A DNA stretch of 64,000 nt from Candidatus Omnitrophota bacterium (GCA_022709525.1 JAKLIQ010000001.1:146679-210678), one strand, 5' to 3'. Shown: positions 28,672-45,477, counted from the first letter of the stretch. Made by a program: numbers and translations. The notes: generated from the sequence alone by a model not told the origin.

Positions 28672-28675
28672 GAGA

Positions 28676-29230
28676 ATGATGAACGCGTTTGGAATAAAAT
28701 TCAAAGAGCAACAGCGAGAACAGGCGGTTATGGTCGCGGTGGGGGTAGCTATGTTGATCGCATGTTATGCCCTGATCATACAGCCCGTTTTTAAAAATGT
28801 TACCGCGTTAAGGCAGGAAGTCTTCGATTCCCAAAAAAGGCTGGATCTTTATCAGGAGATCGAGATTTCCAAGGGGAGTTTGAGGGATCTCGAAAGTTCG
28901 CTTGTGACGATGAAAGACCGGTCTCTTTTTCTTGGAAAAATATCGGACCTTGCGAGCCAGAGCCAGTTAAATGTTCAGACTTTGACCCCCAGGACGCAGG
29001 CCGAGGGGGATTACAGCAAGCTGAGCGTTGAATTAGAAGGGAAAGGATCTTTTTTTGCTTTGCTCAAATTCCTAAAAGCGCTGGAAGGAGGAGGCATCAG
29101 TCTTTCGATCAAGAGTATTTCTTTGCTGCGGCAGAGTTCTCTTCGGAAAGAAGAAGAAAAATATCCTCTCCAGATCCAGATCGACATGGGGACCATCTTA
29201 AAATCACAGGCTAAGAAAACCAATGACTAA
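28676..29230 (+). CDS. PilO-like pilus assembly protein
   Basis: N-terminal TM helix, coiled coil and a C-terminal ELEGKGSFFALLKFLKALE motif typical of PilO/GspM-like proteins. Confidence 0.5.
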   Translation: MMNAFGIKFKEQQREQAVMVAVGVAMLIACYALIIQPVFKNVTALRQEVFDSQKRLDLYQEIEISKGSLRDLESSLVTMKDRSLFLGKISDLASQSQLNVQTLTPRTQAEGDYSKLSVELEGKGSFFALLKFLKALEGGGISLSIKSISLLRQSSLRKEEEKYPLQIQIDMGTILKSQAKKTND

Positions 29231-29771
29231 AATCAAAATATGTTTTGCCTCGATCTTTTGGCTCGCATTTTGCTTTTTAACCCCTGCTCTCTACGGGGAA
29301 AGTCCGGCACCTCAAGAGAATCCGATCCCGGGCAGTCCGTCCGAATTTTCCCAGTCAACGGCAGGAGTTGATACAGCTGTTCAAACAGCTCAGCAAGAGA
29401 TCCGCGATCCTTTCGCAACTCCTTCCGGCCAGAACGTCCCCGCGGTCGCCGCTGTTTCTGCGGATATGCCGGAGATCAAAGTAGATCTTCAAGGGATCGG
29501 TTTTGGCAGCAAGGAAGCTTATGCTTTAATCGGCGGCGACATCTTTCATATTGGGGAGGAAAAACGCGGTATTAAATTACTTGAGGTTCGAAGGCATGAG
29601 GTCGATATCTTAGTGAACGGAGGAAAAGTCACGTATCGATTGTTCCCGGGCCAGGAACTTGAAAAGGCCAAAGAGAGGGAACGCAAAAAGAAAGGCGATA
29701 CGGCTCTTTCCGCTCAACAACCGGAGCAGGATCCGTCATCTTTTACGGGAAGGGAGCAGCCATCATTATGA
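29223..29771 (+). CDS. PilP-like lipoprotein/periplasmic pilus assembly protein
   Basis: Signal peptide, an RDPF motif, and small size. Lies between the pilO-like gene and the secretin. Confidence 0.45.
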   Translation: MTKIKICFASIFWLAFCFLTPALYGESPAPQENPIPGSPSEFSQSTAGVDTAVQTAQQEIRDPFATPSGQNVPAVAAVSADMPEIKVDLQGIGFGSKEAYALIGGDIFHIGEEKRGIKLLEVRRHEVDILVNGGKVTYRLFPGQELEKAKERERKKKGDTALSAQQPEQDPSSFTGREQPSL

Positions 29772-31606
29772 AGAAAACCATTCAGCATTTAAAGGTAGCG
29801 ATTTTTTTAACATTAGCGCTTTTTTTATGCGTGCCTTTTACACTTAGAGCGGAAGATTCCGGAAGCCCGTGGGCCCATGGCGAATCGCCGTCGACAACAG
29901 GGGTGACCGATTCCGGGAGTTCCCCGACGTTCGTTCAGACCTCTCCGGATCAGCCACCGCCCGCTTCGGATGATGTCCAAGTTGAAAGGACGGCCGATGG
30001 GAAATATTATCTCGACTTCAAGGCGGCCTCGCTCATCAATGTATTAAACGTGCTTTCGAATCTAAGCGGGATCAATTTTGTTGCCGGCAGAGAAGTCGCG
30101 GATCGTCAGGTTAATATGACGCTTGATAATGTGACCTTGGATGATGTTTTGGACGCCCTCTCCAACAGTTGTAATGTCACTTATGACATGATGCCGGGAA
30201 GGAATATCTATCTTTTCAGGGCTTCGGCGGATTCGGCGGATAAACCCAAGCTCCTCACCAAGGTTTTTAAGCTTTACTATGTTCAAGTCAGCAAAATAAA
30301 GGAAATTGAATCTTCCTCCTCCAGTTCTTCCGGAGGCAGTTCTTCTTCCGGAACAAGCAGCTCGAGCGGCTCAAGCGGTGGGCTCGTGACCTTATCAACC
30401 TCAGATACCGATGATACAGATCTCGAAAATTCCGCAATCGTAAAAGCGATTGAAAAGATCCTTTCAGAGCGTGGAAAAGTTTCGGTCGATGACCGTTCGA
30501 ACAGTTTGATCGTCACCGATACCGAAGATCGTCTCAAAATGATCGAATCTGCGATCACGCAGCTAGATCGTCCGCTCAACCAGGTGCTCATCAACGTGCT
30601 GCTGATCGAGACATTCGAAGATCTGGATCGAGATTTGGGCCTCATTTGGGGAGATACGGACGGATTTTTCGGAACAATCTCGGGAGGGTCTCAAGATACC
30701 AATTTCCCTTTTTTTACAGGCCCGGTAGGGGGTCACTCAGGCACCTCTTTTTGGGATACCGCATACAATATGTTTAAAAATACTGGAAAGCAATTTAATC
30801 CATCTCATGACAGCGGAGCTCTTGCTACTGGCACCAGAGATTTTACGGCTTTCTCGATTACGTTGCAGGCGTTAGAAAGCGCCTCGAAACTTAAGGTTTT
30901 GGCCAAGCCTAAAATCCTTGTCTTAGATAATCATCCAGCGCTTATCAAAATCGCGACCAATGCCGCGATTGGCACAACAACGGTCACAGAAGCCGGAGGC
31001 GCGGGCACAAGTTCCACGAGCATTGAACGCTCTGAGATTGGCACCATTCTCCGTGTGACACCTCTTATCAACACAGGTGACCGTGTGACTATGACCGTCG
31101 AGCCAACTTTCGCAACCGTGGATCAGTCAGCGATCACAGTTGCCGCAACAGAGACAGGAGACCCCACTGTTCGTACCGCCAGGACGACCATGATGATCAA
31201 TGACGGGCAGACGATCGCGTTGGGCGGCTTGCTTTTTAGCAATCAATCCAACGGGAACAGAAAAGTACCTTTCTTTGGGAATCTTCCAGTGGTAGGCAAA
31301 GCGTTGTTTACCAACAATACAAAATCTCTTCAAGATCGCGAGTTGATACTTTTTGTGACGCCTAACATCATCACAAATTCTTCCGTTCTTGAGACGCTCA
31401 GTGTGCCGGAAAAGCGCTTGCAATACGAAGATGAGTCTGCGCCTTGGTGGAAAGTGAAGCAAAAGCAATGGTATAAAGAAATGAAAGAAGGCCCGGAGAA
31501 GGATCTTGATTTTGATAGTTATTTTAATGTTCGCAAAAAACTGATCGATACGACGCTGGATACCCTGGATCAGACCGCGAAGGCGCCGTCCAAAGGGAAG
31601 CCGTAA
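29768..31606 (+). CDS. secretin (PilQ/GspD family)
   Basis: Signal peptide, N-domains, a Ser/Gly-rich linker (SSSSSSSGGSSSSGTSSSSGSSGG), and a C-terminal secretin domain (IALGGLLFSNQSNGNRKVPFFGNLPVVGKALF...LILFVTPNII). Confidence 0.8.
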   Translation: MKKTIQHLKVAIFLTLALFLCVPFTLRAEDSGSPWAHGESPSTTGVTDSGSSPTFVQTSPDQPPPASDDVQVERTADGKYYLDFKAASLINVLNVLSNLSGINFVAGREVADRQVNMTLDNVTLDDVLDALSNSCNVTYDMMPGRNIYLFRASADSADKPKLLTKVFKLYYVQVSKIKEIESSSSSSSGGSSSSGTSSSSGSSGGLVTLSTSDTDDTDLENSAIVKAIEKILSERGKVSVDDRSNSLIVTDTEDRLKMIESAITQLDRPLNQVLINVLLIETFEDLDRDLGLIWGDTDGFFGTISGGSQDTNFPFFTGPVGGHSGTSFWDTAYNMFKNTGKQFNPSHDSGALATGTRDFTAFSITLQALESASKLKVLAKPKILVLDNHPALIKIATNAAIGTTTVTEAGGAGTSSTSIERSEIGTILRVTPLINTGDRVTMTVEPTFATVDQSAITVAATETGDPTVRTARTTMMINDGQTIALGGLLFSNQSNGNRKVPFFGNLPVVGKALFTNNTKSLQDRELILFVTPNIITNSSVLETLSVPEKRLQYEDESAPWWKVKQKQWYKEMKEGPEKDLDFDSYFNVRKKLIDTTLDTLDQTAKAPSKGKP

Positions 31607-31623: not shown

Positions 31624-33318
31624 GTGCGCATCAACGCTCTTTTAGGGGATTTGCTTGTTGAAAAGGGGGCCATCACTCGCACCCAACTGAACCAAGCGTT
31701 GACCCAGCAGAAAAATTCACGCGAACCGCTAGGTCAAGTGCTCATCCAGATGGGGTTATTGGATGAGGCCCAGCTGCGCATGGTCCTTTCCGAACAGTTG
31801 GGCGTTTCCTTTCTTACCGCCAATCAGTTGAAGCCGCGCACAGATCAGCGCCTCAAAGAATGTATCCCGCCGGATTTTGCCCTAGCCAATTTGGTTCTGC
31901 CTTTAGACCGCCAGGGACAAGTACTTAAAGTGGCTGTGGCTAAGGTGCCCGACATCATTTTCCTCGATAATCTTCGCAAAATTACAGGACTTGATATCGT
32001 GACAGTCCTTTCTACAGAGAACGAACTTCGTCGCGCGATCGAAGCTTATTACAGCAGCACGGACCTTCAGGAGTTTGTTTCTTCCTCGGAAGTGGATGAT
32101 ATCAAAGAGGATTATGGCGATCAAAAAGACGAGAACAAGGTCGATCTGGAAGCGACAATCGCGGAAGCCGGAAAAGGGCCGGTCGTCAAACTCGTCAATT
32201 TTATGATCAAAAAAGCCTTGGATGATCGCGCTAGCGATATCCATATCGAGCCATTCGCCGCAAAGATCTCGGTTCGTTACCGCGTGGACGGCAATCTTTA
32301 TGAGCTTCCTCCTCCGCCCAGAGAGCTGCATAATGCCATCGTTTCCCGTATCAAGATCCTATCAAAGATGGATATCGCGGAAAAACGTATCCCGCAGGAC
32401 GGCTCCTTTTCGATCCAGTACAATGATCAGAAGATCGATGTCCGCGTTTCGACGATCCCAATTATCTATGGCGAAAAAGTTGTCATGCGTATCCTTGCAA
32501 AACGCATGGAACTTTTAAACATGCAGACGCTCGGTTTTGAGCCCGAACAATTGGCGCTTTTTGAAAAAGCGCTGATGCGGCCGTACGGGCTTCTTTTGGT
32601 GACCGGTCCCACCGGAAGCGGTAAAAGCACAACGCTTTATGCGGCATTGAATAAACGTCTTTCTCCGGAGATCAATATTCTCACGATCGAAGATCCGGTC
32701 GAGTATCAGCTTCAGGGGGTCAATCAAGTTCAGGTGAAACCGGATATCGGGCTGACGTTTGCGAGCGGTCTTCGGGCATTCCTCCGCCAAGATCCCGACG
32801 TCATTCTCGTGGGAGAAGTTCGCGATCTTGAGACCGCAGAGATCTGTATTCGCGCCTCGCTTACGGGGCATTTGGTGTTAAGCACGCTTCACACTAATGA
32901 CGCGGTAACGGCAGTAACCCGTCTGATCGATATCGGGATCCCTCCTTATTTGGTCGCGGGGAGTCTTGGCCTTGTCGCTGCGCAACGCTTACTCCGCCTC
33001 TTGTGCCCTCATTGCAAGGTCCCCTATAAGCCCGATGCGAAGATTGTCGACGAATACAAGATCAAAGCCGGTACGCTTTATAATGCTAAAGGATGCGAAA
33101 AATGCCGGAATATCGGTTACTGGGGTCGCATGGCGATCTATGAAGTTTTACCGATCGATGAAGACATTCGTCGCCTTATCACCAAGGACGCAGACCTTGA
33201 GAAACTGCGTCAGGTCCAAAAACAAAAACATTACGAAAGCCTTCTCCAGAACGGATTAAGGAAGGTAGAGCAGGGTATTACGACCCTTGACGAGGTTTTA
33301 AGCGTCGCTTATGAATGA
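31624..33318 (+). CDS. type IV pilus / type II secretion assembly ATPase (PilB/GspE family)
   Basis: T2SSE_N-like N-domain, Walker A VTGPTGSGKSTT, Asp/His boxes, and a tetracysteine zinc motif (CPHCK...CEKC). Confidence 0.85.
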   Translation: MRINALLGDLLVEKGAITRTQLNQALTQQKNSREPLGQVLIQMGLLDEAQLRMVLSEQLGVSFLTANQLKPRTDQRLKECIPPDFALANLVLPLDRQGQVLKVAVAKVPDIIFLDNLRKITGLDIVTVLSTENELRRAIEAYYSSTDLQEFVSSSEVDDIKEDYGDQKDENKVDLEATIAEAGKGPVVKLVNFMIKKALDDRASDIHIEPFAAKISVRYRVDGNLYELPPPPRELHNAIVSRIKILSKMDIAEKRIPQDGSFSIQYNDQKIDVRVSTIPIIYGEKVVMRILAKRMELLNMQTLGFEPEQLALFEKALMRPYGLLLVTGPTGSGKSTTLYAALNKRLSPEINILTIEDPVEYQLQGVNQVQVKPDIGLTFASGLRAFLRQDPDVILVGEVRDLETAEICIRASLTGHLVLSTLHTNDAVTAVTRLIDIGIPPYLVAGSLGLVAAQRLLRLLCPHCKVPYKPDAKIVDEYKIKAGTLYNAKGCEKCRNIGYWGRMAIYEVLPIDEDIRRLITKDADLEKLRQVQKQKHYESLLQNGLRKVEQGITTLDEVLSVAYE

Positions 33319-34639
33319 TCCCTCAGTCGAAAAAAGATCCGCCAACCTCGCGAAAGACAGGGAGCTTTCTTTCGAGTGTCATATCCGTCCTCATGATGCT
33401 CCGCATAAATCTCAAGTTCTGATCATTCAGGCGCCTACCGAGGATATGGCGGTCCAACAACTGCTCGCGCAGGGGCATGTGGTCGTATCCGTCCGCGTTT
33501 TGGGATCCCGCCCCTGGAATTTCCGGGAGATGGTTTTAGGCCCCTTCCGGCCCTCCGGGATCAAATCGCCCAGGGTCTCGCTTTCATTTTTTAACCATGT
33601 TTCGATCCGGGAATTGATCTTTTTTGCGATCCAGCTGGCGACGCTCCTTAAAGCTGGGATCGCGCTTCTCCGGGCCCTTGAAATTATCCGTCGCGGGACG
33701 GCCAATCCCTATTTCCAAAAGGTGATCAAAGGGCTTGGCCAGGATGTCAGCGGCGGCGCGCCCTTGAGCGCCGGACTTGAGAAACATCAGAAAGTTTTCC
33801 CTTGGGTTTGGATCAACCTTGTTAAGGTGGGAGAAACGACGGGAAAACTGCCGGAAGTTCTGGAGGAGATCGCGCATTACCAGGAAGCTTCAGAGCGTAT
33901 TAAAAGCAAGGTTATCTCAGCTTTTTTTTATCCCGGCATTTTGACATTGGCCGTTATCGCGGCTTTGACTTTTTTGTTGATCTTTATCGTTCCGAAATTT
34001 GCGGAGATCTTCCAATCCCAAAATATGCCGCTTCCCGCGATCACCCAGGTTGTTATTGGCGCAAGCGATGCCGTTCGTTTTCAATTTCCCTACATCATGA
34101 CCGCTGTCATCTTGATCATTTTTGGCATCCGCTTCCTTAAAAGGACTCCCGCAGGGAAGATCGGCTACGATCATTTCCGCCTTAATGTCCCCATTTTTGG
34201 CGATCTTCTGGTGCAAGTAGGCGTGGTCCGGTTTTCCCGAAGTCTCGCGACGCTTTTAAAAGCCGGCGTTCAGATCCTCCAGGGGCTTGAGATCTCCGGG
34301 AAGCTCGTTGAGAACCGCTTTATTGAAAATAAACTCAAGGAAGTGGCTTTGGCGGTGCGCGGCGGCCAAGGCCTTGGGATCCAGCTTGAATACAAAAAGA
34401 TCTTTCCCGTTTTCATGACCCAGCTCGTCAGCGTCGGCGAGGAAAGCGGTCAACTGGAACGATTTCTCGACCTTATCGCAAATTTCTATGAAAATCGGGT
34501 GGATACTTTTCTCGCGCGTTTGGCGACGCTTTTAGAACCCATCCTTCTTCTTTTTATGGGTGGCGTGATCGGAACGATCGTGGTTTCCATGTTCCTTCCG
34601 ATCATCGAGCTTTCTACGGGCGGCGCGGCGGGGATGTAG
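33311..34639 (+). CDS. pilus / T2SS inner-membrane platform protein (PilC/GspF family)
   Basis: Two repeated GspF-type cytoplasmic domains with three TM segments. Overlaps the ATPase stop. Confidence 0.8.
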   Translation: MNDPSVEKRSANLAKDRELSFECHIRPHDAPHKSQVLIIQAPTEDMAVQQLLAQGHVVVSVRVLGSRPWNFREMVLGPFRPSGIKSPRVSLSFFNHVSIRELIFFAIQLATLLKAGIALLRALEIIRRGTANPYFQKVIKGLGQDVSGGAPLSAGLEKHQKVFPWVWINLVKVGETTGKLPEVLEEIAHYQEASERIKSKVISAFFYPGILTLAVIAALTFLLIFIVPKFAEIFQSQNMPLPAITQVVIGASDAVRFQFPYIMTAVILIIFGIRFLKRTPAGKIGYDHFRLNVPIFGDLLVQVGVVRFSRSLATLLKAGVQILQGLEISGKLVENRFIENKLKEVALAVRGGQGLGIQLEYKKIFPVFMTQLVSVGEESGQLERFLDLIANFYENRVDTFLARLATLLEPILLLFMGGVIGTIVVSMFLPIIELSTGGAAGM

Positions 34640-34740: not shown

Positions 34741-35226
34741 ATGAAAACTAAAAAGGGTTTTACACTGATCGAGCTTCTCATCGTGGTCATCATCATCGCC
34801 GTTTTAGCGGCTTTAATTCTTCCGCGTTTCTTAAGTCAGCCGGAGCGTGCCAGGGTCGCTGAGGCCCAGCAGCAGCTCGGCGCTCTTCGCCGCGCCCAGA
34901 TTGCGAATATGGACGCAACAGGAGACGACAGTTTTATAGCCGTTACAGCCACTACGACCGGTTCAGGAGGTACTACCGCAGGATCGGGGTGGGGAGTCCT
35001 TGGTTTAGTGGAGCCAGACGCGGCACAGGGGGCGAATTTTACTTATACGTGCACCGCAGGGACCACTCCCACAACCAACTTGTGTACTGCCACGCGTAGC
35101 ACCATTCCTGGGAATACAATTATCCTTCGGGAGGATGGTAATTATTTATGCGGCGGAACGTATTGGCCGGTGGGCGGAGCGGCGCAAACAGATACCAGCA
35201 CGACCGGATGCACTACTCGAGCATAG
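34741..35226 (+). CDS. type IV pilin (prepilin with class III signal peptide), Thr-rich C-terminal region
   Basis: MKTKKG|FTLIELLIVVIIIAVLAALILP is an N-methylation-type leader plus hydrophobic helix. The C-terminal half is Thr/Gly-rich with four Cys. Confidence 0.8.
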   Translation: MKTKKGFTLIELLIVVIIIAVLAALILPRFLSQPERARVAEAQQQLGALRRAQIANMDATGDDSFIAVTATTTGSGGTTAGSGWGVLGLVEPDAAQGANFTYTCTAGTTPTTNLCTATRSTIPGNTIILREDGNYLCGGTYWPVGGAAQTDTSTTGCTTRA

Positions 35227-35289
35227 GTTTTCTTTTTGATAGCGGGTTTCGTTGTTATTTTTCAAAAAATAAAAAGCGAGGGTCGCGGC

Positions 35290-35766
35290 ATGAGATATGA
35301 GGGTAAGGGTTTTACATTGGCCGAGCTTCTCATTGTCATCGTGATTTTGGGTATTTTGGGCGGCATTGCTCTTCCGAAATTTTTCCCGCAAGCTGAAAAA
35401 GGACGCGTCGCGGAAGCCGTAGGGATGTTAAGCGCTATTCGTATGGGAGAGGAAGCCTATAAGCTTGAGAATGGCGTATATCTTGCTATCACCAACAGTG
35501 CCGCCGGCACTGAGTGGAATAAAATCGGAATGGATAGCCCCAATACTAGCACCGCTGACAGCCGTAATTTTGAATACAGTGTAGCGCTAGTTTCGTCCAG
35601 AAGCAGTACGGGACTTCCCGGGTTTGATGCTACTGCTACGCGATGCACTGCGCAGTCATGGTGCAAGAACGATAGCCCATCTGCCGAATATGGCGGCAAG
35701 ACGATCATTCTCAATGAATTAGGCGTTTGGGATTCCGCCGCAACACACCCATTTAAGCCGTCTTAA
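35290..35766 (+). CDS. type IV pilin paralog 2
   Basis: MRYEGKG|FTLAELLIVIVILGILGGIALP. ATG at 35290; the ORF track's upstream start is unlikely. Confidence 0.75.
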   Translation: MRYEGKGFTLAELLIVIVILGILGGIALPKFFPQAEKGRVAEAVGMLSAIRMGEEAYKLENGVYLAITNSAAGTEWNKIGMDSPNTSTADSRNFEYSVALVSSRSSTGLPGFDATATRCTAQSWCKNDSPSAEYGGKTIILNELGVWDSAATHPFKPS

Positions 35767-35796: not shown

Positions 35797-36330
35797 ATGG
35801 GGAGTAGCGTTATGTTTCATCAGGGAGGTTCGTTAAGAAAACAGCGCGACATTCCCCGAAGTGCGGGGTTTACGTTAACTGAGGTGATGATTGTAGTTAT
35901 CATCATCGGGGTTCTTGCCACGCTCGCCATCCCTCGTTTTTTTGGCCAAACCGAAAAAGCCAAAGCTGCCGAAGCAATTAACATGTTAAGCGTTATTCGG
36001 CGCGCCCAGCTTCAGTATTATGACGCTCACGATAGAGTATACGTATCGATCCCGGATAACTGCAGCCCATCAGGTGCTGATGTGGCTACCAGTAAAACCG
36101 ATTTTTTAGAAAAACTTGGGATCGAAATTCCCGCCTGCGCTAACGCCCATTGGACTTATAGTACCGCCAACGTTGCCAATAGCGGTGGGACAAATTCCCT
36201 TATTGTCACAGCCACCCGGAAGCCCATTGGGGGTGAAAAAGTCTCAGGCGCCTTGACCATCGATGATAATGGGACGTGGAGCGGAGCAGGGGAATATGCG
36301 AAATCTGCGGAAAAATACTGGCCGTTCTAA
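35797..36330 (+). CDS. type IV pilin paralog 3
   Basis: Leader ...PRSAG|FTLTEVMIVVIIIGVLATLAIP. ATG at 35797 or 35812. Confidence 0.7.
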   Translation: MGSSVMFHQGGSLRKQRDIPRSAGFTLTEVMIVVIIIGVLATLAIPRFFGQTEKAKAAEAINMLSVIRRAQLQYYDAHDRVYVSIPDNCSPSGADVATSKTDFLEKLGIEIPACANAHWTYSTANVANSGGTNSLIVTATRKPIGGEKVSGALTIDDNGTWSGAGEYAKSAEKYWPF

Positions 36331-36473: not shown

Positions 36474-36887
36474 ATGAAAAAAGAAATTGGTTTTACGCTT
36501 TTGGAGATCATGGTCAGCATGGTAGTCCTGACCGTTGTGGCCGTAGGAGTGATCGGTACGGTTGCTTTTACAAAGCGGTCTGCGGCCGAAATGCAACAAC
36601 GGCTAAGCGCTATTGATCTCGCGGAAAAAAAGATCGCGGAGATTAAAACCCAAAAGATTGGCGCCATTCCCTTAACGCACGAAACCATTACCACCGCTTT
36701 TTCGGAGTTGTCTAGTGCTGTGATGGCCTATAAGGTCGAAAAGCTTGGCGTACCGTATCTTTTCAACGTCGAAATTGAAATACGTTGGGATTATGGCTGG
36801 CGGGACAAAGCAAATCCATGCGCAACAAATTGGGATTCTTGCGATAAAAAAATGATTTTACGCACAGTTTATTTTAGCCCGTCTTGA
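36474..36887 (+). CDS. minor pilin / pseudopilin
   Basis: MKKEIG|FTLLEIMVSMVVLTVVAV prepilin-type N-terminus. 137 aa. Confidence 0.6.
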   Translation: MKKEIGFTLLEIMVSMVVLTVVAVGVIGTVAFTKRSAAEMQQRLSAIDLAEKKIAEIKTQKIGAIPLTHETITTAFSELSSAVMAYKVEKLGVPYLFNVEIEIRWDYGWRDKANPCATNWDSCDKKMILRTVYFSPS

Positions 36888-36991
36888 AAAGGTATCGCAG
36901 TGAAGTTCGGAGGTTTTAAAAAAGGAGGTTAGCGATTAATTGCCTTGGTCGTTATCCCAATTTCGTTAAATCGGTTCACGGCTTAACTCTC

Positions 36992-37681
36992 TTGGAGCTT
37001 TTGCTCGCCCTTTCAATTCTTTCTTCCGTGCTTATCGCCGGGGGGGTCTTGTCTATTTCCGTTGCCAAAATACTTTATCGCGCAAATGCGCAAACCCGGG
37101 CCTTTGACACGGTTAATTCTGTTATTCGGTTCATGGAAAAGGATATTAAGCAAATGGTGCCTGGCACCGTTGGCGTTTACAATCAATTATGCAGCAACGC
37201 AAGGGGCACTTCCGCGGGTACCTTAACGGGTTATGGCCCCATGTTTGGATGGCGGCTTGCCCTTCTTGATTTTCAAAGCAGTCTGCCGCTTTCAAAAACA
37301 GGATCTAATAATTGTGGTTGGTGGGGATTATCAGAAAGATATGGCTATTGCTATAATGTAATTTCGAGCCGCGCCGGAGGGTTCGACGGATACATTTCTA
37401 ATTATGCAAGCGATGTGGCGGTCGTGCCTTACATCCAGAAGGAAGATTTCAAAACTCCCGTGTCTGATGAGGATTTTTTAGCGTGTCGCGATAATCCGTG
37501 CTATAAAACCCAACACGACTCTCCTGCCACCTTCTGCCCTAATATATGGGACATAGAAACTGATTCTGAAGGAAATCAAACCTTAATTCTCAGAATCGGA
37601 GCGATCGTTACAAAGGACGGGAAAACGTTGGCAAGGGCCGGTGTCCGGAAATATTTTGCCCTGCCGAAGGTGAAAACGTGA
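36992..37681 (+). CDS. minor pilin / pseudopilin (true start upstream of the track ORF)
   Basis: Upstream of the TTG at 36992 the frame stays open back to a stop at 36917 and encodes ...SVHG|LTLLELLLALSIL, a prepilin cleavage motif. There is no in-frame ATG/GTG/TTG upstream; an ATT at 36935 sits 7 nt after AAAGGAGG. Confidence 0.5.
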   Translation: MELLLALSILSSVLIAGGVLSISVAKILYRANAQTRAFDTVNSVIRFMEKDIKQMVPGTVGVYNQLCSNARGTSAGTLTGYGPMFGWRLALLDFQSSLPLSKTGSNNCGWWGLSERYGYCYNVISSRAGGFDGYISNYASDVAVVPYIQKEDFKTPVSDEDFLACRDNPCYKTQHDSPATFCPNIWDIETDSEGNQTLILRIGAIVTKDGKTLARAGVRKYFALPKVKT

Positions 37682-40600
37682 GAAATTTAAAAACAAACGA
37701 ACGCGGCTATGCTTTGCTTGCAACGATTTTGATAGTCATCCTCATTGTCTCAGGGCTTACGGGAGCTTTTCTTAACATGACCCGGCAAGGCCGCAGTATC
37801 CAACGGCTCAAAGACCGTGCCGAAATGAGTTTGTATGCGCAAGCCGTTGTTGAAGCGGTTGAAAGTCTTTTTTACAGTTATGTAATAACTCATGCGACCT
37901 ATCCAAATTTTTCAAGTGAACAAAAAAACGAGGTATGCGATCCATGTGTTTCGACGGATACCGCTGGATTTTTTAGGACAAAAGCGTTGGCGAATATCCA
38001 GTCCTTAACAAGCCATATGCCTTACATAAAAGATCCGGCAAACCTTAATAGCATTCCCGAGGTTCGCGTTCGCCAAATTGGATCTTCAACCGAGCCCGCC
38101 GATGCTGTTCGGGAATATGAGGTGACGGTTGCGATGGTCAACACCCGTTCGGGAGAACGCCTGGCCGTTAAACAAAAACTCGAAGTCCGGGCGGGCACGC
38201 TTTTTGATTTCTCTATTTTTTATGACGACGACCTTGAGATCGCGCCGGGCCCGGAAAGTTCGATCCAGGGGCCGATCTTCACAAACGGGGATGTCTACTT
38301 GATGAGCGGGAGGACCAGTGACTTTGCAACCAATGCCGGGCTTAAGTTTCTGCTTCCCTATACCAATCCGTTAAATCCGCATCCGCAAAATTATATTCTT
38401 AAAAGCCATGGAGATATTTATTTCTATTTCAAGCGAGCCATGGCAGAAAATTATATGTTGAATAGCCAAGAATTTTCAGGCGCTGATGCCTATATCGCCA
38501 ATTTGCCACCCTACTATCTCGAAGCTTTAGGAGTTAGTGATCTCGCTTCGCTTAAGGCGAGGGTGGCTGGCGGCGAAAAACTTCCTGAGGTCACGCCGCC
38601 CTGGAACGTGCATCAATCCGATTGGTGCGATTATTCCAAAATATATGCAGGATGCCAGTTGGAAAAAGATGGAACCGAAAACAGGTTTTTTCCATATTTT
38701 TACTATTTTTCGAATGGGGCTGAGCTCGGAAATTATAACGGAGTCATCCCCGTGACTCGTATCAGTGTTTATGATAGCAGCGGGGCTAGTCCTCTTAACA
38801 TCGGGACAACTCCGACCGGGGTTCTTGTTCAATCCTACTCAAGGTTTGCAGCCGGAACTGTTTATCATGCGCCTCGTATGGGCCCCTACGCCTATCCGTG
38901 GACAGCATACAGAGTGAGCGTTTCTCCGGCTTTTGACGTTACAAATTTTCCAAAACTTTATTCCGGTTGGTCGCCTGAACATCCCGTAGCTACAAGAAAA
39001 AATGTTACGGGAGAGTCTCATCCATTAAAAGAAAAAATGGACAATCCTTTAAAAGACCCGCAGTGGGGCGGCGTTAGCTCTCAGGGAAATATTTTGATTA
39101 TGGACAATGTCGACCCTAAAGCATTACCGATTGGCGTTGCTAATCCGGATCCAAGCAACATCAATCCGAATCATCTTCTCATCGAACCCGTAGAGGAAAG
39201 CGATTCCGTCGAGATCAAAAATTTGAAGTATCAGGGGATCGCGGATATCGATATTCGTTGCGCTAACAGTTTATGCACAGCTCATAGCGTGTGCGTGAAA
39301 GGCGAATATCCATGTTTTTCAAGTAGCGCTGCGCCGGAAGAATTCATTGATTATGGCTGGATCTATGACTACCGGCTCAAAGGACGCTATAGAACCTTAA
39401 CCCTTTTCATGGACAAACTTAGGAAATATTTTCTTGATCGTATTCCCAGAACAGACGCGACGGGAACCGCGCTCGGAAATGAGTATTTTCGCGATGGTAT
39501 AAGTATTTATATTCAAACCCTTCCGATGCTTGATTCTCTGGGCGTTCCTCAAGGCGACGCCGAAGATAACTCTGTGCGCCTTGTGAGGGTCAAAGACTCC
39601 GCGGCCGCCACATATCCCGGAGCGATCCCCTCGGCATTGCAAAGTGGAAAGATCACCGGGATGACTCTTGCGACAAATGGACGGCTTTGGGTTCAAGGAG
39701 ATTTCAATATTTATTATGGTTATAACGAGAGCGGGGCTCCGGGAGGCGTTTGTTCCTATGACGAGATTATTCAACAGACATGCAAAGTGCCGCCGGTTGC
39801 TATTTTTAGTGACAGCTTTGGAATTCTTTCTAAGGAATGGAAAGATGCTTACGGAGCGTCCACTTCTTTGGATTCCCGAAACGTTGGAAACGATCTTAGT
39901 TTAAATACTGCGGTCGTGACAGGTTTTCTGGAATCCCGCCTCGAGCGCAGATACAGCTCTCTTCCTGGCCCGCGTTGGAATACAAACGGGATTGATGCGA
40001 AATATTTAACGGGGCCTGTCAATGGAATTTACTATCTCAAAGTATCGCATCCTGATTTTGATCTAGCCAAAACTTCCATGTCGTATTGGCCTGAATGGGC
40101 TAAGACCGCGGGCGATACCGAAATACCCGTAGTGACATGTGAAGTAGATAAAACCACTTATACCCCGCCACTTACCGCTTCCGTTGCAGGATGCCTGGGC
40201 TATGTCGGAGTTCCCTCCGTAGCGCTGCATTCCTCTTATGTTTTAACGGGCTATTCGCCCAATTGCTGGAATTGTCTAGGCGTTCGAAATCCTAGTTATA
40301 CCGGTGTTCCTACAGGGGAAGGAAGCGCAGTGTCTCATACGGGTGATACTTGCGCTGCGGATGTAGCCAGCGGGGCTCCATTAAGACATTCCGAATATCG
40401 AAATATTGGCGCTTGCCGGGACGGAAGCGATCTAAATGGGGCGGTAATTCCAACAGAGAATCCTTATTACAATTCCCCCTGCAGAATTACAGCGACAAAT
40501 GGGGCGATCCCTGGGGAAATTAATTTTACAGAGATTTACAACGCTTGGCGCCGAGATGATGCAGGCAATCATATCAGTCTGATTACAACCAACGAAAGCT

Positions 40601-41679
40601 ATTTTTCCGGATTGCCGTCCATGAATCCTTATGAAAAACTTGATTCAAAAAGCAATGATGTGGACCCTATCACCAATCAGGCAGACCCTTCTAATGATAT
40701 CTGGGATCAGGACAGGGGAGGTTTTTTGATCTATAAAGTTCCCGGCGCTAGCCCCGGGGAACCGGGAGGGCAATTAAAAGCGGCGGGAAAATACAGGTTT
40801 TTCCTTTTTTGTCCTTATGGAATATGCAGCAACGCGTACCCTGAATTAAAAGCAAAAAACGGCTGGTTTGTTAGTTGTTCAGGCGCCGATTCGGCGCCCT
40901 CGAGCGGCGCCTGTTCTTTTGAAGGAAGAAACGATGTCTTTAAACCCGAGTATAAAAATTTTCTGGAACCGCTTTATGAAAGATTGCAAATGGCCGATCA
41001 ACACGGAAATCCTCTTTACTGGTATAGAAACTATAGCTCGTCCAGCCCAGGGTATCGTTACAGAGATTTTCTGGTTATAAAATTGGTCAATCCCTATCCG
41101 GCGGCAAGCATTGACCCGGGATCAAGCAGTCAAGTCATAGGCCAATATTATTTCAAAAATCGAACTTGCCATCCCGCACTCGGAACCTCCTGTTCTTCCG
41201 GCGCCAACAAGATCTATCTCCGCGCATGCGACATTTCATCATCGGGGCTCGGAGGATATCTTAATGCTATCGAACAGGTAAATTATCCGCCCAATCTTCA
41301 TTACAGCTACCCCTATTACGAACGCCTATATGATGTGAAATACAGTGGAGGATATGAAAACTTGATCAACTTTCAAGAAAATTGGCGGGATTTGAGCGAT
41401 CCTAGTGAGGATATTCGACGTAGAGTCTTTTTTTCAGGAGTCACGACGGCCCCGTGGTTTTCGGAAGAATTAAAAAAATCAGACGGAGCGCCGGCATATT
41501 ATGGAACCGATTATTACAGGGCTCCGGAACGAACCTATGACTACAACGAAACCCTAAGAGATGATCCTCCGCCCGGAACTCCCAAGCTATTTTCTGTGGC
41601 TCAAAAGACGGGCCAGAAGGAATTAGACCCTGATAATCTTGATTATGTTGATTCTACTACCTCGTCCGGGGGTTCTTGA
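37678..41679 (+). CDS. giant PilX_N-anchored, Cys-rich extracellular protein (putative pilus-associated adhesin, 1333 aa)
   Basis: N-terminus NERGYALLATILIVILIVSGLTGAFLNMT resembles the PilX N-terminal (pseudopilin-like) anchor. The remaining ~1250 aa are rich in Cys, Tyr, Trp, Asn, Gly and Pro with no recognised domain. It lies among the pseudopilins and is AT-richer than the flanking genes. Confidence 0.5.
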   Translation: MRNLKTNERGYALLATILIVILIVSGLTGAFLNMTRQGRSIQRLKDRAEMSLYAQAVVEAVESLFYSYVITHATYPNFSSEQKNEVCDPCVSTDTAGFFRTKALANIQSLTSHMPYIKDPANLNSIPEVRVRQIGSSTEPADAVREYEVTVAMVNTRSGERLAVKQKLEVRAGTLFDFSIFYDDDLEIAPGPESSIQGPIFTNGDVYLMSGRTSDFATNAGLKFLLPYTNPLNPHPQNYILKSHGDIYFYFKRAMAENYMLNSQEFSGADAYIANLPPYYLEALGVSDLASLKARVAGGEKLPEVTPPWNVHQSDWCDYSKIYAGCQLEKDGTENRFFPYFYYFSNGAELGNYNGVIPVTRISVYDSSGASPLNIGTTPTGVLVQSYSRFAAGTVYHAPRMGPYAYPWTAYRVSVSPAFDVTNFPKLYSGWSPEHPVATRKNVTGESHPLKEKMDNPLKDPQWGGVSSQGNILIMDNVDPKALPIGVANPDPSNINPNHLLIEPVEESDSVEIKNLKYQGIADIDIRCANSLCTAHSVCVKGEYPCFSSSAAPEEFIDYGWIYDYRLKGRYRTLTLFMDKLRKYFLDRIPRTDATGTALGNEYFRDGISIYIQTLPMLDSLGVPQGDAEDNSVRLVRVKDSAAATYPGAIPSALQSGKITGMTLATNGRLWVQGDFNIYYGYNESGAPGGVCSYDEIIQQTCKVPPVAIFSDSFGILSKEWKDAYGASTSLDSRNVGNDLSLNTAVVTGFLESRLERRYSSLPGPRWNTNGIDAKYLTGPVNGIYYLKVSHPDFDLAKTSMSYWPEWAKTAGDTEIPVVTCEVDKTTYTPPLTASVAGCLGYVGVPSVALHSSYVLTGYSPNCWNCLGVRNPSYTGVPTGEGSAVSHTGDTCAADVASGAPLRHSEYRNIGACRDGSDLNGAVIPTENPYYNSPCRITATNGAIPGEINFTEIYNAWRRDDAGNHISLITTNESYFSGLPSMNPYEKLDSKSNDVDPITNQADPSNDIWDQDRGGFLIYKVPGASPGEPGGQLKAAGKYRFFLFCPYGICSNAYPELKAKNGWFVSCSGADSAPSSGACSFEGRNDVFKPEYKNFLEPLYERLQMADQHGNPLYWYRNYSSSSPGYRYRDFLVIKLVNPYPAASIDPGSSSQVIGQYYFKNRTCHPALGTSCSSGANKIYLRACDISSSGLGGYLNAIEQVNYPPNLHYSYPYYERLYDVKYSGGYENLINFQENWRDLSDPSEDIRRRVFFSGVTTAPWFSEELKKSDGAPAYYGTDYYRAPERTYDYNETLRDDPPPGTPKLFSVAQKTGQKELDPDNLDYVDSTTSSGGS

Positions 41680-42230
41680 TGGGGAAACGGGGCATAACAT
41701 TACTTGAGACCATCGTAACGTTGGTAATTATGGCGATTGGCGCCTCGATCGTTGTTCCTAAGATTCAACAAACCGCCGAAAACAAACGCGCTGACAGCGC
41801 GATTCAAAGCCTTCGGACGATTTCTCATTGTATGCGCCTCTATGCGCTGGAAAAAAATCTTGAAGTTTTTCAAAATACCTCCTCTGGCAGCTTATCAGCG
41901 CTTGAAAAGCTATCAACCATGCAAGGAGGGAGTGGTTGTTTTGACTATAATGCGCTTGAGCCAACCTATGATTTTTTTGCGAACAAAGATGCGAATAGCG
42001 ATGAATGGATCTCCTGGTATGGAACGGATTGGGGTAATTGGGTATCGCTTGTCGCGTGTGACAAAAAAAGCAAACGTGTAATTTTTTTGAGATTTGCGGG
42101 TGACCCTACGCGGGGTCTTTATTATGGAAGCGCCATTTTTGATTTTAAGGACACAGCGTGCCCGGATCCAAATTCAAACATTGCGCTTCCGTCAGATTTT
42201 AAAAATCTTGTCCGTAATATCCCAGAATGA
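41676..42230 (+). CDS. pseudopilin (GspG/H-like)
   Basis: MMGKRG|ITLLETIVTLVIMAIGASIVVP prepilin N-terminus. Overlaps the stop of the giant gene. Confidence 0.6.
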   Translation: MMGKRGITLLETIVTLVIMAIGASIVVPKIQQTAENKRADSAIQSLRTISHCMRLYALEKNLEVFQNTSSGSLSALEKLSTMQGGSGCFDYNALEPTYDFFANKDANSDEWISWYGTDWGNWVSLVACDKKSKRVIFLRFAGDPTRGLYYGSAIFDFKDTACPDPNSNIALPSDFKNLVRNIPE

Positions 42231-42342: not shown

Positions 42343-43095
42343 ATGAAACAGCGCGTCTTAATTTTTGAGAAAAATGGAGGGGGGTGGGCGTCTTTTTTGA
42401 GCGGTTATTTCAGCGATGCGCCGGTCTCGGTAATGACGGCCGACGATCCTGCGCAAACGGGCCCGCTTTTTGATAAATTCGTTCCGAAGGTTCTTTTTAG
42501 CCAGCATTTCTTTTTAGCAAAAAATTTTTTACAAAAGATCCGGGTCCGGAAAGACACGGATCCCCAATTCCGCTTTTATCTTTTGGGCGAAGCCCCCGCT
42601 TTCAAGAAAGACCCTCTTCTTGACGGCGCCTTTCCGGACGATCCGGCGTCGATCGATTTTAATAAAAAGTTCATCGAATCGTTGCCCATGCCGGAGAAGG
42701 TCCGGATCCTGGTTGTCGACGACGAAGAGGAGATCGGGACGATGGTCCGGGATTATTTTGAGGGGCGCCAGGCCCCTACCTTCGAGATCGCATGCGCCCC
42801 GAACGGGAAAGAAGCGCTTGCGGTGATCGCGAAGCGGAAACCCGATGTGATCATTCTCGATATCAAGATGCCCGTGATGGACGGCCGGGAATTCTACGCG
42901 AAGCTCAAGGCCTCCAAGCTCGAGATCCCGGTGGTCGTCTTCTTTGATTCTATTTCAGGAGAGGAGCTTTCCGAGATGCGCCGATCAGGCAATCCCGCCG
43001 TGCTCGAGAAAGGGTACAAAGGCAGCTCGCTTTCGGCGATGATGTTTTTGGTGAAGAAATTAGTTTACTTCACCAGACTCGAGACGACAGACTAG
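42343..43095 (+). CDS. response regulator with C-terminal receiver domain and degenerate N-terminal receiver-like domain
   Basis: C-terminal REC with RILVVDDEEEIG...DVIILDIKMPVMDG...LEKG. The ~110-aa N-terminal region looks like a degenerate receiver (VLIFEKNGG...). No output domain. Confidence 0.65.
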   Translation: MKQRVLIFEKNGGGWASFLSGYFSDAPVSVMTADDPAQTGPLFDKFVPKVLFSQHFFLAKNFLQKIRVRKDTDPQFRFYLLGEAPAFKKDPLLDGAFPDDPASIDFNKKFIESLPMPEKVRILVVDDEEEIGTMVRDYFEGRQAPTFEIACAPNGKEALAVIAKRKPDVIILDIKMPVMDGREFYAKLKASKLEIPVVVFFDSISGEELSEMRRSGNPAVLEKGYKGSSLSAMMFLVKKLVYFTRLETTD

Positions 43096-43182
43096 AGACA
43101 AGAGCATAGGTAGTTGGCAGCAAAGAAGTATATGGTAGGTGGTATGTAGTATGTGGCAAATCAAGAAAGAAGCGGTAAAGTC

Positions 43183-43542
43183 ATGACAAAGATCACAAGC
43201 TTTAAGGATTTAAAAATTTGGAATTTGGGAGTAGAAATCGTTTTGGTCGTCTATGGGCTGACAAAAAGATTTCCAAAGGAGGAGATCTATGGCCTGACAA
43301 GCCAGATCCGAAGGGCCTCGGTTTCTATCCCCGCGAATATTGCCGAAGGGTTTCGACGATTTTCTTCCAAGGAACATAAACAATATCTTCATATCGCGAT
43401 GGGGTCTCTTGCGGAACTTGAAACCGAACTTTTTATAGCGTACAGACTGGAATATTTTACGGAAAATGAATTTGAGACTATTTCTTCCAAAATTGACTCC
43501 TTGGGGCGGATGCTAACAGCTGTCCTTCAAAAATTCAGATAG
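43183..43542 (+). CDS. four-helix-bundle protein (23S rRNA intervening-sequence protein family)
   Basis: FKDLKIWNLGVEI...YGLTSQIRRASVSIPANIAEGF...LHIAMGSLAELETELFIA is the typical four-helix-bundle protein pattern. It is flanked by imperfect inverted repeats. Confidence 0.7.
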   Translation: MTKITSFKDLKIWNLGVEIVLVVYGLTKRFPKEEIYGLTSQIRRASVSIPANIAEGFRRFSSKEHKQYLHIAMGSLAELETELFIAYRLEYFTENEFETISSKIDSLGRMLTAVLQKFR

Positions 43543-43548
43543 GATGCG

Positions 43549-45477
43549 ATGAATTTTTTAAAAAAACGAAACCACATACTACTTACTACATACTATCTAC
43601 TATTTTTTTTCGTCACATGTTCCCTTGCTGCCGAACCGCTTTCCTCCGACGATGAAGCTTTGCTCGACGAGATCCAGGAAAAGGCCTGCCGTTTTTTTCA
43701 AGACCACGTTAATCCCTACAACGGGCTTGTCCGGGACAGCGCGCCCAACAAGCCCAACGCCGCCAGCAACGCTCCGGCAACTATCGCGGGCGTCGGGTTC
43801 GCGCTTTCGGCTTATCCGGTCGCCGTCGAAAGGGGATGGATGAGCCGCGCGACGGCGCACGCCCTGACGGTCCGGACGTTGGAGTTTTTCCTCAACCAGG
43901 CGGCGCAGCATAAAGGTTTTTTCTATCATTTCCTTAATTTTGAAAGCGGGGAGCGGGCCGGCCGCTCGGAGCTTTCGCCGATCGATACAGCGCTTTTTTT
44001 GGCCGGCGCGCTTTTTGCCGCAGAGTATTTTGAGGACGCCAAGATCCACGGCCTTGTGCGCCGGATCTATGAACGGATCGATTTTCCCTGGATGATGAAT
44101 CACGGCAAGGCCTTCGCCCTTGCCTGGCATCCCGAAACCGGTTTCAGCAAGCACCGCTGGGACCATTTTGACGAGTCGCTTCTTTTGTATGTCCTCGCGA
44201 TCGGCTCGCCGGGCCTGCCGATCCCGGCCGAAAGCTGGCGGGAGATCTCGCGGCCGGTGGGAAGTTACCGTGATTACCGGCTGATCCAGATGCCGCCGCT
44301 TTTTACGCACCAGTACCCGCATGTCTGGCTTGACCTCCGCGATCAAAACGACGGTTTTGCGGATTATTTCTCCAATTCCGTGAATGCCTCGCTCGCCAAC
44401 CGAGCTTTTTGCATCGATCAGGCGTCCAAGTTCGCCGGTTACGGCCCGAACCACTGGGGGCTTTCGGCTTCGGAGGGCCCCGCAGGATACCGCGCCTACG
44501 GAGCGCCGCCGGGTTGGACGGTTCTTCATGACGGCACCATCACGCCGACGGCCTGCGGCAGCTCGATCGTTTTTACACCCAAGGAATCCATCGCCTGCCT
44601 CAGGGATCTACGCCAGAATTACAGCGACACCCTGTGGGGGCCTTACGGTTTTTCGGATGCTATCAACATGACCAAGGGGTGGGTGAGCCCCAAAGTGCTG
44701 GCGATCGATCAGGGGCCGCTTCTGCTCATGATCGAAAATTACCGGTCGGGCTTGATCTGGAAACACATGAAGCAGAGCACGCCTATCCAGGCGGCCCTCA
44801 AAAAGATCGGGTTCCGGAAAGGAACTATGGAACTTCCCTGGCCGCCGCCCCCCGAATATCGCGCGCCCTATGTTCCTCAAGGCCTTCAGATCGACGGATT
44901 CCTTAAAGATTGGCCCGCCTCAGGCGCGATCAAGCTGGATCCGGAACACAACAGGGAATTCGGTGTTTTTGACGGCCCCGAAGATCTTTCGGCGTCCATT
45001 CGATTTGCCTGGGACAAGGAATACCTCTATTTCGTGGCGAAGGTAACCGACGACGATGTGATCGTTAAAAGGACAGGCAAGAATATCTGGCGCGACGACA
45101 TCTTCGAGCTTTACATTGATCCGGAAGGGGAAGGCCTTTACTGGAACGATCCGGGGGATTATCAGATAGGGTTCCGCCCCGGGCTCGGCGAAAAGGAGAT
45201 CGCCGCATGGTCGTGGTTTCAGGGCGGCGAGGACCCGCTTCAGACCGGACAAGCGATCGCGAAAAGCTATGTGGACGGCAAGGGATATATTATCGAAGGG
45301 GCTATCCGGTGGGAATATCTCGGGATCGAGCCGGCGCCCGGCGGCGAGGTCCGGCTTAGTCCCGCAATTCATGAGATCGACCGTAAAGGCGGGGACGGAA
45401 AACTTGTTTGGTTCTTCCGCAACGAGGAAAAATATAAACGTTTTGTCCTGGGAAAAGTTATCCTGTCGCAAGAATAA
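43549..45477 (+). CDS. secreted glucoamylase-like (six-hairpin glycoside hydrolase, DUF3131-like) protein with C-terminal CBM9-like domain
   Basis: Signal peptide, then an alpha/alpha-toroid-like region, then a C-terminal family-9-type carbohydrate-binding domain (FAWDKEYLYFVAKVTDDDV...WRDDIFELYIDPEG...YQIGF). The family assignment is tentative. Confidence 0.5.
   Translation: MNFLKKRNHILLTTYYLLFFFVTCSLAAEPLSSDDEALLDEIQEKACRFFQDHVNPYNGLVRDSAPNKPNAASNAPATIAGVGFALSAYPVAVERGWMSRATAHALTVRTLEFFLNQAAQHKGFFYHFLNFESGERAGRSELSPIDTALFLAGALFAAEYFEDAKIHGLVRRIYERIDFPWMMNHGKAFALAWHPETGFSKHRWDHFDESLLLYVLAIGSPGLPIPAESWREISRPVGSYRDYRLIQMPPLFTHQYPHVWLDLRDQNDGFADYFSNSVNASLANRAFCIDQASKFAGYGPNHWGLSASEGPAGYRAYGAPPGWTVLHDGTITPTACGSSIVFTPKESIACLRDLRQNYSDTLWGPYGFSDAINMTKGWVSPKVLAIDQGPLLLMIENYRSGLIWKHMKQSTPIQAALKKIGFRKGTMELPWPPPPEYRAPYVPQGLQIDGFLKDWPASGAIKLDPEHNREFGVFDGPEDLSASIRFAWDKEYLYFVAKVTDDDVIVKRTGKNIWRDDIFELYIDPEGEGLYWNDPGDYQIGFRPGLGEKEIAAWSWFQGGEDPLQTGQAIAKSYVDGKGYIIEGAIRWEYLGIEPAPGGEVRLSPAIHEIDRKGGDGKLVWFFRNEEKYKRFVLGKVILSQE

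Follow-up and report, generated by a model that had tools for sequence, protein, structure and literature searches.

A giant pilin-like protein of an Omnitrophota type IV filament operon: a probable tip-capping minor pilin related to HpsA-like proteins

ComZ of Thermus thermophilus consists of a GspK-like pilin domain with a β-solenoid of ~380 residues inserted before its last strand, and steric arguments have been put forward that the pilus tip is the only place where it fits (PMC6561018). All cyanobacterial PilX homologues have been described as having a pilin plus solenoid architecture. Among them the PilX_EPS subfamily is expanded and homologous to HpsA, and it has been proposed that the cyanobacterial PilX solenoid takes the place of PilY1, both as a plug of the tip and as an adhesin (bioRxiv 10.64898/2026.02.12.705559). 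In Omnitrophota, type IVa pilus clusters have been reported from nearly all classes and discussed as a feature of life in dependence on a host (PMC10066038); the cited papers on ComZ, HpsA/PilX and Omnitrophota do not discuss the pilin plus solenoid architecture for this phylum. Here we analyze a 1333-residue protein, referred to as the giant, that is encoded at positions 37678..41679 of a 64,000-nucleotide stretch of a Candidatus Omnitrophota bacterium genome (GCA_022709525.1, JAKLIQ010000001.1:146679-210678; hereafter the window). The giant is probably the tip-capping (GspK/PilX-position) minor pilin of an Omnitrophota type IV filament machine, and the best-supported view of its ancestry makes it a distant, enlarged Omnitrophota member of the HpsA-like/solenoid-PilX superfamily. 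All features described below lie on the + strand.

As claimed in an earlier note made from the sequence alone, the giant is encoded by a single open reading frame (ORF): ORF calling and translation gave 1333 codons without interruption. The start codon, GTG, shares bases with the TGA stop of the gene before it (GTGA) and has an AAGGTG Shine-Dalgarno sequence ahead of it, and the stop codon overlaps the start of the downstream gene at 41676. Homologues of the same length class support this gene model, as P0002 (1317 aa, 65-68% identical) and P0003 (1330 aa, 40% identical) both align with the giant from end to end. In comparisons with P0002, the ratio of nonsynonymous to synonymous substitution rates (dN/dS) was ~0.13 overall, and dN was lower than dS in all regions. 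Ratios were below 0.2 in the six regions of at least 87 codons where they could be computed and 0.40 in the 24-codon C-terminal tail; dS of the C-terminal core block gave no computable value. The ratios show constraint, but synonymous sites are saturated between the two genes, which makes dN/dS uninformative on positive selection in the variable segment described below as insertion 2. No frameshift or division into two genes was found, and the giant is a genuine gene under purifying selection over its whole length.

The N-terminus provides the first indication of function. A hydropathy scan identified MRNLKTNERG/YALLATILIVILIVSGLTGAF as the sole hydrophobic segment of the protein; no second transmembrane segment and no internal repeats were found in the giant. 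Read directly from the sequence, it consists of a short basic leader (MRNLKTNERG, 37678..37707) that ends in Gly-1, with a putative prepilin-peptidase site after Gly10, and a hydrophobic α1N helix at residues 11-32 (37708..37773), the only segment with a Kyte-Doolittle value above 1.6. The helix begins with Tyr at +1 and has Ala at +5, in place of the Glu5 found in all six small pilins of the locus; the giant is the only pilin-like gene there that lacks it. The same pattern is seen in the family of 39 sequences described below. Thirty-three N-termini fit a search motif of short leader, Gly-1 and hydrophobic helix, a motif that itself demands Gly at -1. Leaders of the fitting members are mostly 6-16 aa long (four outliers are longer, up to 65), 24 of the 33 have Phe at +1, and position +5 is Leu, Phe or Ala, and Glu in none of the 33 scorable members. 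A Glu5-less N-terminus with a short leader and Gly-1 is the signature of tip-capping pseudopilins. The N-terminus had been described in the earlier note as PilX_N-like, and that resemblance holds at the level of pattern but not of curated models: Pfam PilX_N gave no match in the giant, even when residues 1-120 alone were searched at E<=10, N_methyl and TIGR02532 gave none, and NCBIfam GspK (NF037980) aligned to residues 8-62 with E 0.06 and 12.9 bits, missing its cut-off of 130. The absence of a Sec signal peptide, also claimed there, agrees with the pilin-type N-terminus.

Pfam and NCBIfam searches with the window proteins place the giant within a complete type IV filament operon. It is preceded by a GspI/PilV-like minor pilin of 137 aa (36474..36887; G/FTLLE; Pfam N_methyl; NCBIfam GspI, E=8e-7) and a GspJ/PilW-like minor pilin (36935..37681; G/LTLLELLLAL; NCBIfam GspJ, E=1e-3), and downstream is a GspH/FimU-like pseudopilin of 184 aa (41676..42230; G/ITLLE; Pfam N_methyl; N-terminal matches to NCBIfam GspG and GspH). 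With the order GspI-like, GspJ-like, giant, GspH-like, the giant lies directly after the GspJ-like gene and therefore in the GspK/PilX slot, not in the PilY1 slot to which it had first been assigned. Neither a separate small PilX-like gene nor a PilY1 gene is present in the locus.

The 5′ end of the GspJ-like gene deserves comment. A mechanical ORF call starts at TTG 36992, the first in-frame ATG, GTG or TTG, which lies inside the mature pilin, and loses the prepilin motif SVHG/LTLLELLLAL. A strong Shine-Dalgarno sequence, AAAGGAGG, is located at 36920-36927, and 7 nt on there is an in-frame ATT at 36935, the probable start codon. The best NCBIfam match of the ATT-extended protein is GspJ, and its prepilin N-terminal domain passes the cut-off; in locus L001 the homologue starts at a conventional ATG, and its leader is 20 residues long.

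The arrangement is conserved in other genomes. GspI-like, GspJ-like and giant genes recur in this order in five loci (L002, L003, L004, L006 and L009), a GspJ-like gene also precedes the giant in L001 and L007, and a GspH-like pseudopilin follows it in L003, L004 and L006. In the other loci the GspJ-like protein begins G/LTLLEL and the giant G/FAL..., again without Glu5. Tandem double cassettes of GspI-like, GspJ-like and giant genes were observed in two related metagenome-assembled genomes (MAGs), in L002 (3458-12974), which carries no phylum name, and in L009 (155-4851 and 11075-14909), which is from Omnitrophota; they hint at alternative tip complexes on one machine.

We determined the relationships of the giant with profile methods. 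Pfam is silent on the full-length protein, and also when seven overlapping pieces of it are searched at E<=10, in keeping with the statement in the earlier note that no domain could be recognized. NCBIfam HpsA (NF038301) matched residues 179-206 only (E 5e-4, 17.8 bits; equivalog cut-off 400 bits). Word-indexed protein searches, including one with a 39-sequence alignment as the query, returned only the giant itself and P0002, and the family emerged only from an exhaustive HMMER search. With residues 100-1299 as the query, that search retrieved 344 representatives at E<=1e-3 and 33 at E<=1e-30. Apart from P0002, the 32 representatives at the stricter threshold are 368-1330 aa long (mostly 900-1330 aa), and many proteins of 550-850 aa carry the same three conserved blocks. 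Two sets were compared further, a giant family of 39 aligned members and 60 of the short relatives.

Both sets connect to HpsA. NCBIfam HpsA matches every one of the 60 short relatives tested (best E 6e-50); three of these match Pfam PilX_N and three the GspK N-terminal region. In the giant family, HpsA is matched by 25 of 39 members and GspK by 6 of 39, with E-values for GspK down to 2e-6. Alignment of the two families with hhalign gave a probability of 100% and E 5e-62, with 625 aligned columns across residues 7-1330 when the giant was the reference. The conserved core so defined (residues 7-262, 458-753 and 1219-1330) aligns with a 697-aa relative from one end to the other. These alignments show that the giant is homologous to HpsA-like proteins. 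The fold had been called unknown, and this no longer holds for the ~700-residue conserved core, which belongs to a described superfamily (NF038301 HpsA, PilX_EPS, ComZ). Searches of PDB sequences with the giant and both family profiles gave nothing meaningful, and Pfam found nothing in the 39 giant-family members apart from one stray EF-hand. The protein concerned has EF-hand matches at E ~1e-3 that are reminiscent of the PilY1 calcium site; the giant has none.

In a scan of species-representative genomes with an 11-sequence alignment, strong matches over most of the query (L002-L009) came from Omnitrophota or from MAGs without a phylum name. Weaker and mostly partial matches were obtained in Zixibacteria, Ignavibacteriales, other members of the Fibrobacteres-Chlorobi-Bacteroidetes (FCB) group, Calditrichaeota and an Opitutaceae MAG.

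Alignments and AlphaFold2 models together delimit the parts of the protein. Residues 1-172 (37678..38193) are predicted to form a pilin-like domain with an α1 helix and a β-sheet; this segment aligns to the N-terminus of P0050, which matches NCBIfam GspK over its N-terminal residues 5-68. The start of the core follows at residues 173-262 (38194..38463), with the motif FDFSIFYDDDLEIAPGP...GPIFTNGD and predicted solenoid-like rungs of short strands; at 91% identity to P0002, no other block is as well conserved. Insertion 1, delimited at residues 263-457 (38464..39048) by the hhalign map and the family consensus, is largely unaligned to short HpsA-like relatives and common to the Omnitrophota giant family; its predicted local distance difference test (pLDDT) scores are mostly moderate to high, with two stretches below 50. 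The middle of the core, residues 458-753 (39049..39936) on the hhalign map, contains HLLIEP, DYRL, ATNGRLWVQGDFN and PPVAIFSDSFGILS, conserved Cys pairs 528/533 and 692/702, and invariant columns R566, G668, G674 and G749, and is predicted with pLDDT mostly 85-97. Insertion 2, residues 754-1218 (39937..41331), is hypervariable and unaligned to the short relatives. Finally, the C-terminal core at residues 1219-1316 (41332..41625; YSGGYENLINFQENW...PPPGTPKLFSVAQK) aligns to the HpsA-like C-terminus, with 87% identity to P0002 over residues 1219-1305.

Two structural models were compared. That of the giant itself, hereafter the window model, covers residues 134-1333 and was built from the 39-sequence alignment (mean pLDDT 64). 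It is mostly confident at residues 134-763, with short low stretches, and confident at 1208-1323. It contains strands at 144-154 and 161-174 (pLDDT ~80-90) followed by many strands of 3-5 residues, as would be expected of predicted solenoid rungs. The second model, of the full-length homologue P0006 (1044 aa; pLDDT 78.7, predicted template-modeling score 0.81), has a single helix at 6-69 (64 residues), a three-strand sheet at 126-172, both with high pLDDT, a β-rich body and a terminal strand; the latter is very confident here and has pLDDT ~70-85 in the window model. Foldseek searches of the PDB with the P0006 model produced a single match at E<=1e-3, which was ComZ (6qvi, E 5e-4). ComZ was the only PDB fold match to emerge from the structure prediction that the earlier note had proposed; neither the PilY1 propeller nor a known enzyme family, either of which would have reduced the novelty of the protein, was found by Pfam or Foldseek. 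A viral fold library gave no significant match, and the non-significant ones included a few with β-helix-like names (DUF3494, pectate lyase, tail fibre).

Insertion 2 differs from the rest of the passenger. It holds 14 of the 24 Cys residues, including the conserved pairs 866/892 and 1164/1172, which with the two pairs of the core make four that are kept across the family; the remaining Cys are common to only one to three other family members. Over residues 801-1200, identity within the family falls to 3-13% and gaps rise to 42-80%. In the comparison with P0002 its dN of 0.42 was the highest, versus 0.04-0.24 in the other regions of at least 87 codons, and its dN/dS of 0.17 indicates that it is still constrained. 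The exhaustive HMMER search found no homologues of insertion 2 beyond P0002 and P0003. These features fit an exposed, fast-evolving binding surface, and the paired Cys residues would be candidates for disulfide bonds.

The overall composition of the giant is also unusual. Compared with 23 other window proteins, it is enriched in Tyr (6.9% vs 2.7%) and Cys (1.8% vs 0.8%), and likewise in Asn, Pro and Ser. This bears out the unusual composition that had been claimed for it in the case of Tyr, Asn, Pro and Cys, but the count of more than 30 Cys was too high: there are 24, mostly as close pairs. The GC content of the gene (46.7%) is lower than that of the window (51.5%), as had been noted, but adjoining minor-pilin genes are equally low (44.9, 47.0 and 44.1%). 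Low GC is therefore a trait of the block at ~36.4-42.2 kb and not of the giant alone, and a reading of horizontal transfer from the GC content of the giant was rejected.

Taken together, the Glu5-less N-terminus, the I-J-giant-H gene order, the homology to HpsA and the match to ComZ bear out the central proposal of the earlier note, a pilin-type helix with a very large tip passenger, and favor the assignment of the giant as the tip-capping minor pilin. Such a protein would insert in the inner membrane via its single N-terminal hydrophobic helix, and a prepilin peptidase whose gene lies outside the window might trim it after Gly10. It would then be the first and most distal subunit: without Glu5, no subunit would be placed above it, and it must therefore stand at the end. 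Together with the GspI-like and GspJ-like pilins, whose genes immediately precede its own, it could nucleate a priming complex, which the GspH-like pilin from just downstream would join to the major-pilin fibre. The passenger would combine two lineage-specific insertions with a conserved HpsA-like core of ~700 residues, whose predicted form is solenoid-like and resembles that of ComZ and cyanobacterial PilX. It could stand in for a separate PilY1-type adhesin, with insertion 2 (754-1218) as the likely ligand-, surface- or host-binding face. Location at the tip and a role as an adhesin are both what we infer from this arrangement.

The remaining genes of the operon lie upstream of the minor pilins. 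They begin with a 502-aa protein in which a PilM domain (Pfam PilM_2) is fused to a membrane/periplasmic part, as in GspL (27163-28671), a GspM/PilO-like protein (28676-29230; Pfam T2SSM) and a 182-aa protein without a Pfam family match (29223-29771); this inner-membrane part of the machine, 27163-29771, looks like a hybrid of type II secretion system (T2SS) and type IV pilus. A secretin (29768-31606; Pfam Secretin and Secretin_N), an assembly ATPase with an MshEN N-terminal domain (31624-33318; Pfam T2SSE and MshEN) and a platform protein (33311-34639; Pfam T2SSF) follow. Next are three major-pilin-like genes of 161 aa (34741-35226), 176 aa (35236-35766) and 177 aa (35797-36330), with matches to N_methyl and N-terminal matches to GspG and Myxococcus PilA. 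MshEN is discussed in the literature as a cyclic di-GMP-binding module, and its presence in the ATPase suggests second-messenger control of filament assembly.

Genes flanking the operon were also inspected. Just upstream of the PilM-like gene, 25777-27126 encodes a 449-aa protein with a Pro/Ser-rich N-terminal half, one membrane segment by eye and a weak intermediate-filament match (E 2e-4). Immediately after the pilin block comes a response-regulator gene (42343-43095). GC then rises to ~56% at 43153-45477, a region that encodes a 23S rRNA intervening-sequence/bAvd-like four-helix protein and then a PF10091 glucoamylase-like protein with CBM9. By eye, the latter has a signal peptide, and if the machine resembles a T2SS, this protein might be one of its secretion substrates. 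Further downstream, visual reading suggests genes for efflux-pump components.

Several observations weigh against assignment of the giant as the tip-capping minor pilin. Its ~140-kDa passenger must traverse the secretin. The protein stays below every curated family threshold (HpsA, GspK, PilX_N, N_methyl and TIGR02532), and its tie to HpsA is transitive, by way of relatives. A crude motif scan of the 64 kb found no prepilin-peptidase motif, and residues +1 to +5 (YALLA), which come after the putative cleavage site at Gly10, are atypical of prepilin peptidase substrates; ComZ is likewise not predicted to be cleaved (PMC6561018). BLASTP found no PilT paralogue in the window. On the structural side, the window model begins at residue 134 and so shows, of the pilin sheet, just the final two strands, and ~370 of its residues (827-1121 and 1133-1207), all within insertion 2, have pLDDT below 50 and no usable model. 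ComZ ranks first in the Foldseek PDB search with this model, at a non-significant E of 0.37, and TM-scores to ComZ are low for both models; the ComZ match is therefore support and not proof. That the last strand (residues ~1303-1316) rejoins the pilin sheet is proposed by analogy with ComZ and cyanobacterial PilX.

Alternatively, the giant might play the same tip role in a T2SS-like periplasmic pseudopilus, where it would be a piston head or substrate-contact surface and not an external adhesin. The resemblance of the PilM fusion to GspL and the Pfam T2SSM match of the next gene are as expected if this were the case, as are the failure to find PilT, the NCBI name of the protein ('type II secretion system protein [Candidatus Omnitrophota bacterium]') and the PF10091 plus CBM9 gene a few kb downstream, whose product could be cargo. 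A pseudopilus accounts less readily for three major-pilin-like genes, and GspC was not recognized among the window proteins. Moreover, such clusters in Omnitrophota have been classed as type IVa pili (PMC10066038), ComZ and cyanobacterial PilX/HpsA operate with pili, and a hypervariable module suits an exposed surface better than the periplasm. On balance we regard this alternative as unlikely.

Homology to HpsA-like proteins raises a second alternative, in which the giant is the equivalent of HpsA and, with the adjacent pseudopilins, drives or guides extracellular polysaccharide export via the filament machine. HpsA-D are needed for hormogonium polysaccharide secretion (PMC6495340), and the GspJ-like pilin has a weak match to HpsC (E 0.057). 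However, the HpsA score of the giant is far from the equivalog cut-off (17.8 vs 400 bits), and no hps-type glycosyltransferase genes (hpsE-G) were recognized near the operon by Pfam and, in part, by eye. The export role of HpsA is itself mechanistically unsettled, and a preprint recasts the protein as a slime-track adhesin (bioRxiv 10.64898/2026.02.12.705559). A function in polysaccharide export thus appears improbable.

It is also conceivable that the giant never enters a filament and is instead a periplasmic or surface protein with an uncleaved signal anchor, encoded beside pilin genes. Failure of the N-terminus to match N_methyl and TIGR02532, the atypical residues +1 to +5 and the lack of a visible peptidase gene in the window all point in this direction. 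We consider it very improbable, as Gly-1, the short basic leader and the absence of Glu5 are strictly conserved in the family, the gene is translationally coupled to pilin genes on either side, the I-J-giant order is conserved, and the P0006 model has a pilin-like helix and sheet and a fold match to ComZ. A PilY1-type adhesin, or a two-gene fusion or misassembly, might be suggested by the large size of the giant and its place among minor pilin genes, and both are effectively excluded by the lack of a PilY1/PilC propeller among Pfam and fold-search matches, the pilin-type N-terminus without a Sec signal peptide, and one continuous ORF with same-length homologues and dN/dS constraint.

If the giant is indeed the tip-capping minor pilin, several consequences follow. 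The assignment provides a rational annotation for a family of 900-1330-residue proteins in Omnitrophota and in MAGs without a phylum name, whose database copies are labelled 'hypothetical protein' or 'type II secretion system protein', and the defined core (7-262, 458-753 and 1219-1330) offers a basis for a Pfam-type model. It also extends the reach of the pilin plus solenoid tip design to Omnitrophota and several other phyla, largely of the FCB group. If insertion 2 is a binding surface, it would be a concrete candidate for surface or host recognition by these uncultured nanobacteria. More speculatively, Omnitrophota, which are ultra-small and thought to be host-dependent, may have brought PilX cap and PilY1-type adhesin together in one giant tip pilin, with the 465 residues of insertion 2 as a rapidly diversifying, disulfide-bearing host- or prey-recognition module; we put this forward tentatively. 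Were it true, the unannotated HpsA-like superfamily would comprise widespread, exchangeable pilus-tip receptors beyond cyanobacteria and Thermus, a receptor class that spans Omnitrophota, Zixibacteria, Ignavibacteriales, Calditrichaeota and Opitutaceae.

Among known systems, PilY1/PilC probably shares with the giant the niche of a large, variable tip adhesin encoded among minor pilin genes. In contrast to the giant, PilY1 is a non-pilin with a Sec signal peptide and a C-terminal β-propeller. GspK and PilX occupy the same slot after GspI-like and GspJ-like genes and have the same short leader, Gly-1 and hydrophobic helix without Glu5. GspK, however, has ~320 residues and an α-helical domain inserted between β3 and β4, and PilX has ~170-200 residues and works with a separate PilY1, whereas the giant carries a β-rich passenger of more than 1100 residues at a locus without a PilY1 gene.

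ComZ (PDB 6QVI), the only solved structure retrieved with either model, has ~500-550 residues, lacks a Cys-rich hypervariable module and shows no detectable sequence similarity to the giant. ComZ binds DNA for competence; nothing in the giant points to DNA binding. A further counterpart is HpsA/PilX_EPS (NF038301, IPR049774; hps locus of Nostoc punctiforme). These proteins are likewise very large, with a Glu5-less pilin-type N-terminus and adjacent pseudopilin genes, and have been described as a pilin fold with an expanded β-solenoid and further undefined domains (bioRxiv 10.64898/2026.02.12.705559). HpsA and the giant share a DLEIxPGP...GPxxxNGD block near the N-terminus and a YSGGxEN...PPPGTP block at the C-terminus, and the HpsA profile matches the C-terminal block in relatives of the giant. 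The giant differs in its phylum, in the absence of recognized adjacent hps-type glycosyltransferase genes, in its own insertions at 263-457 and 754-1218, in its four family-conserved Cys pairs, and in the gene order I-J-giant-H as opposed to hpsA-B-C-D. As a distant, enlarged relative, it extends a known kind of protein and does not found a new one.

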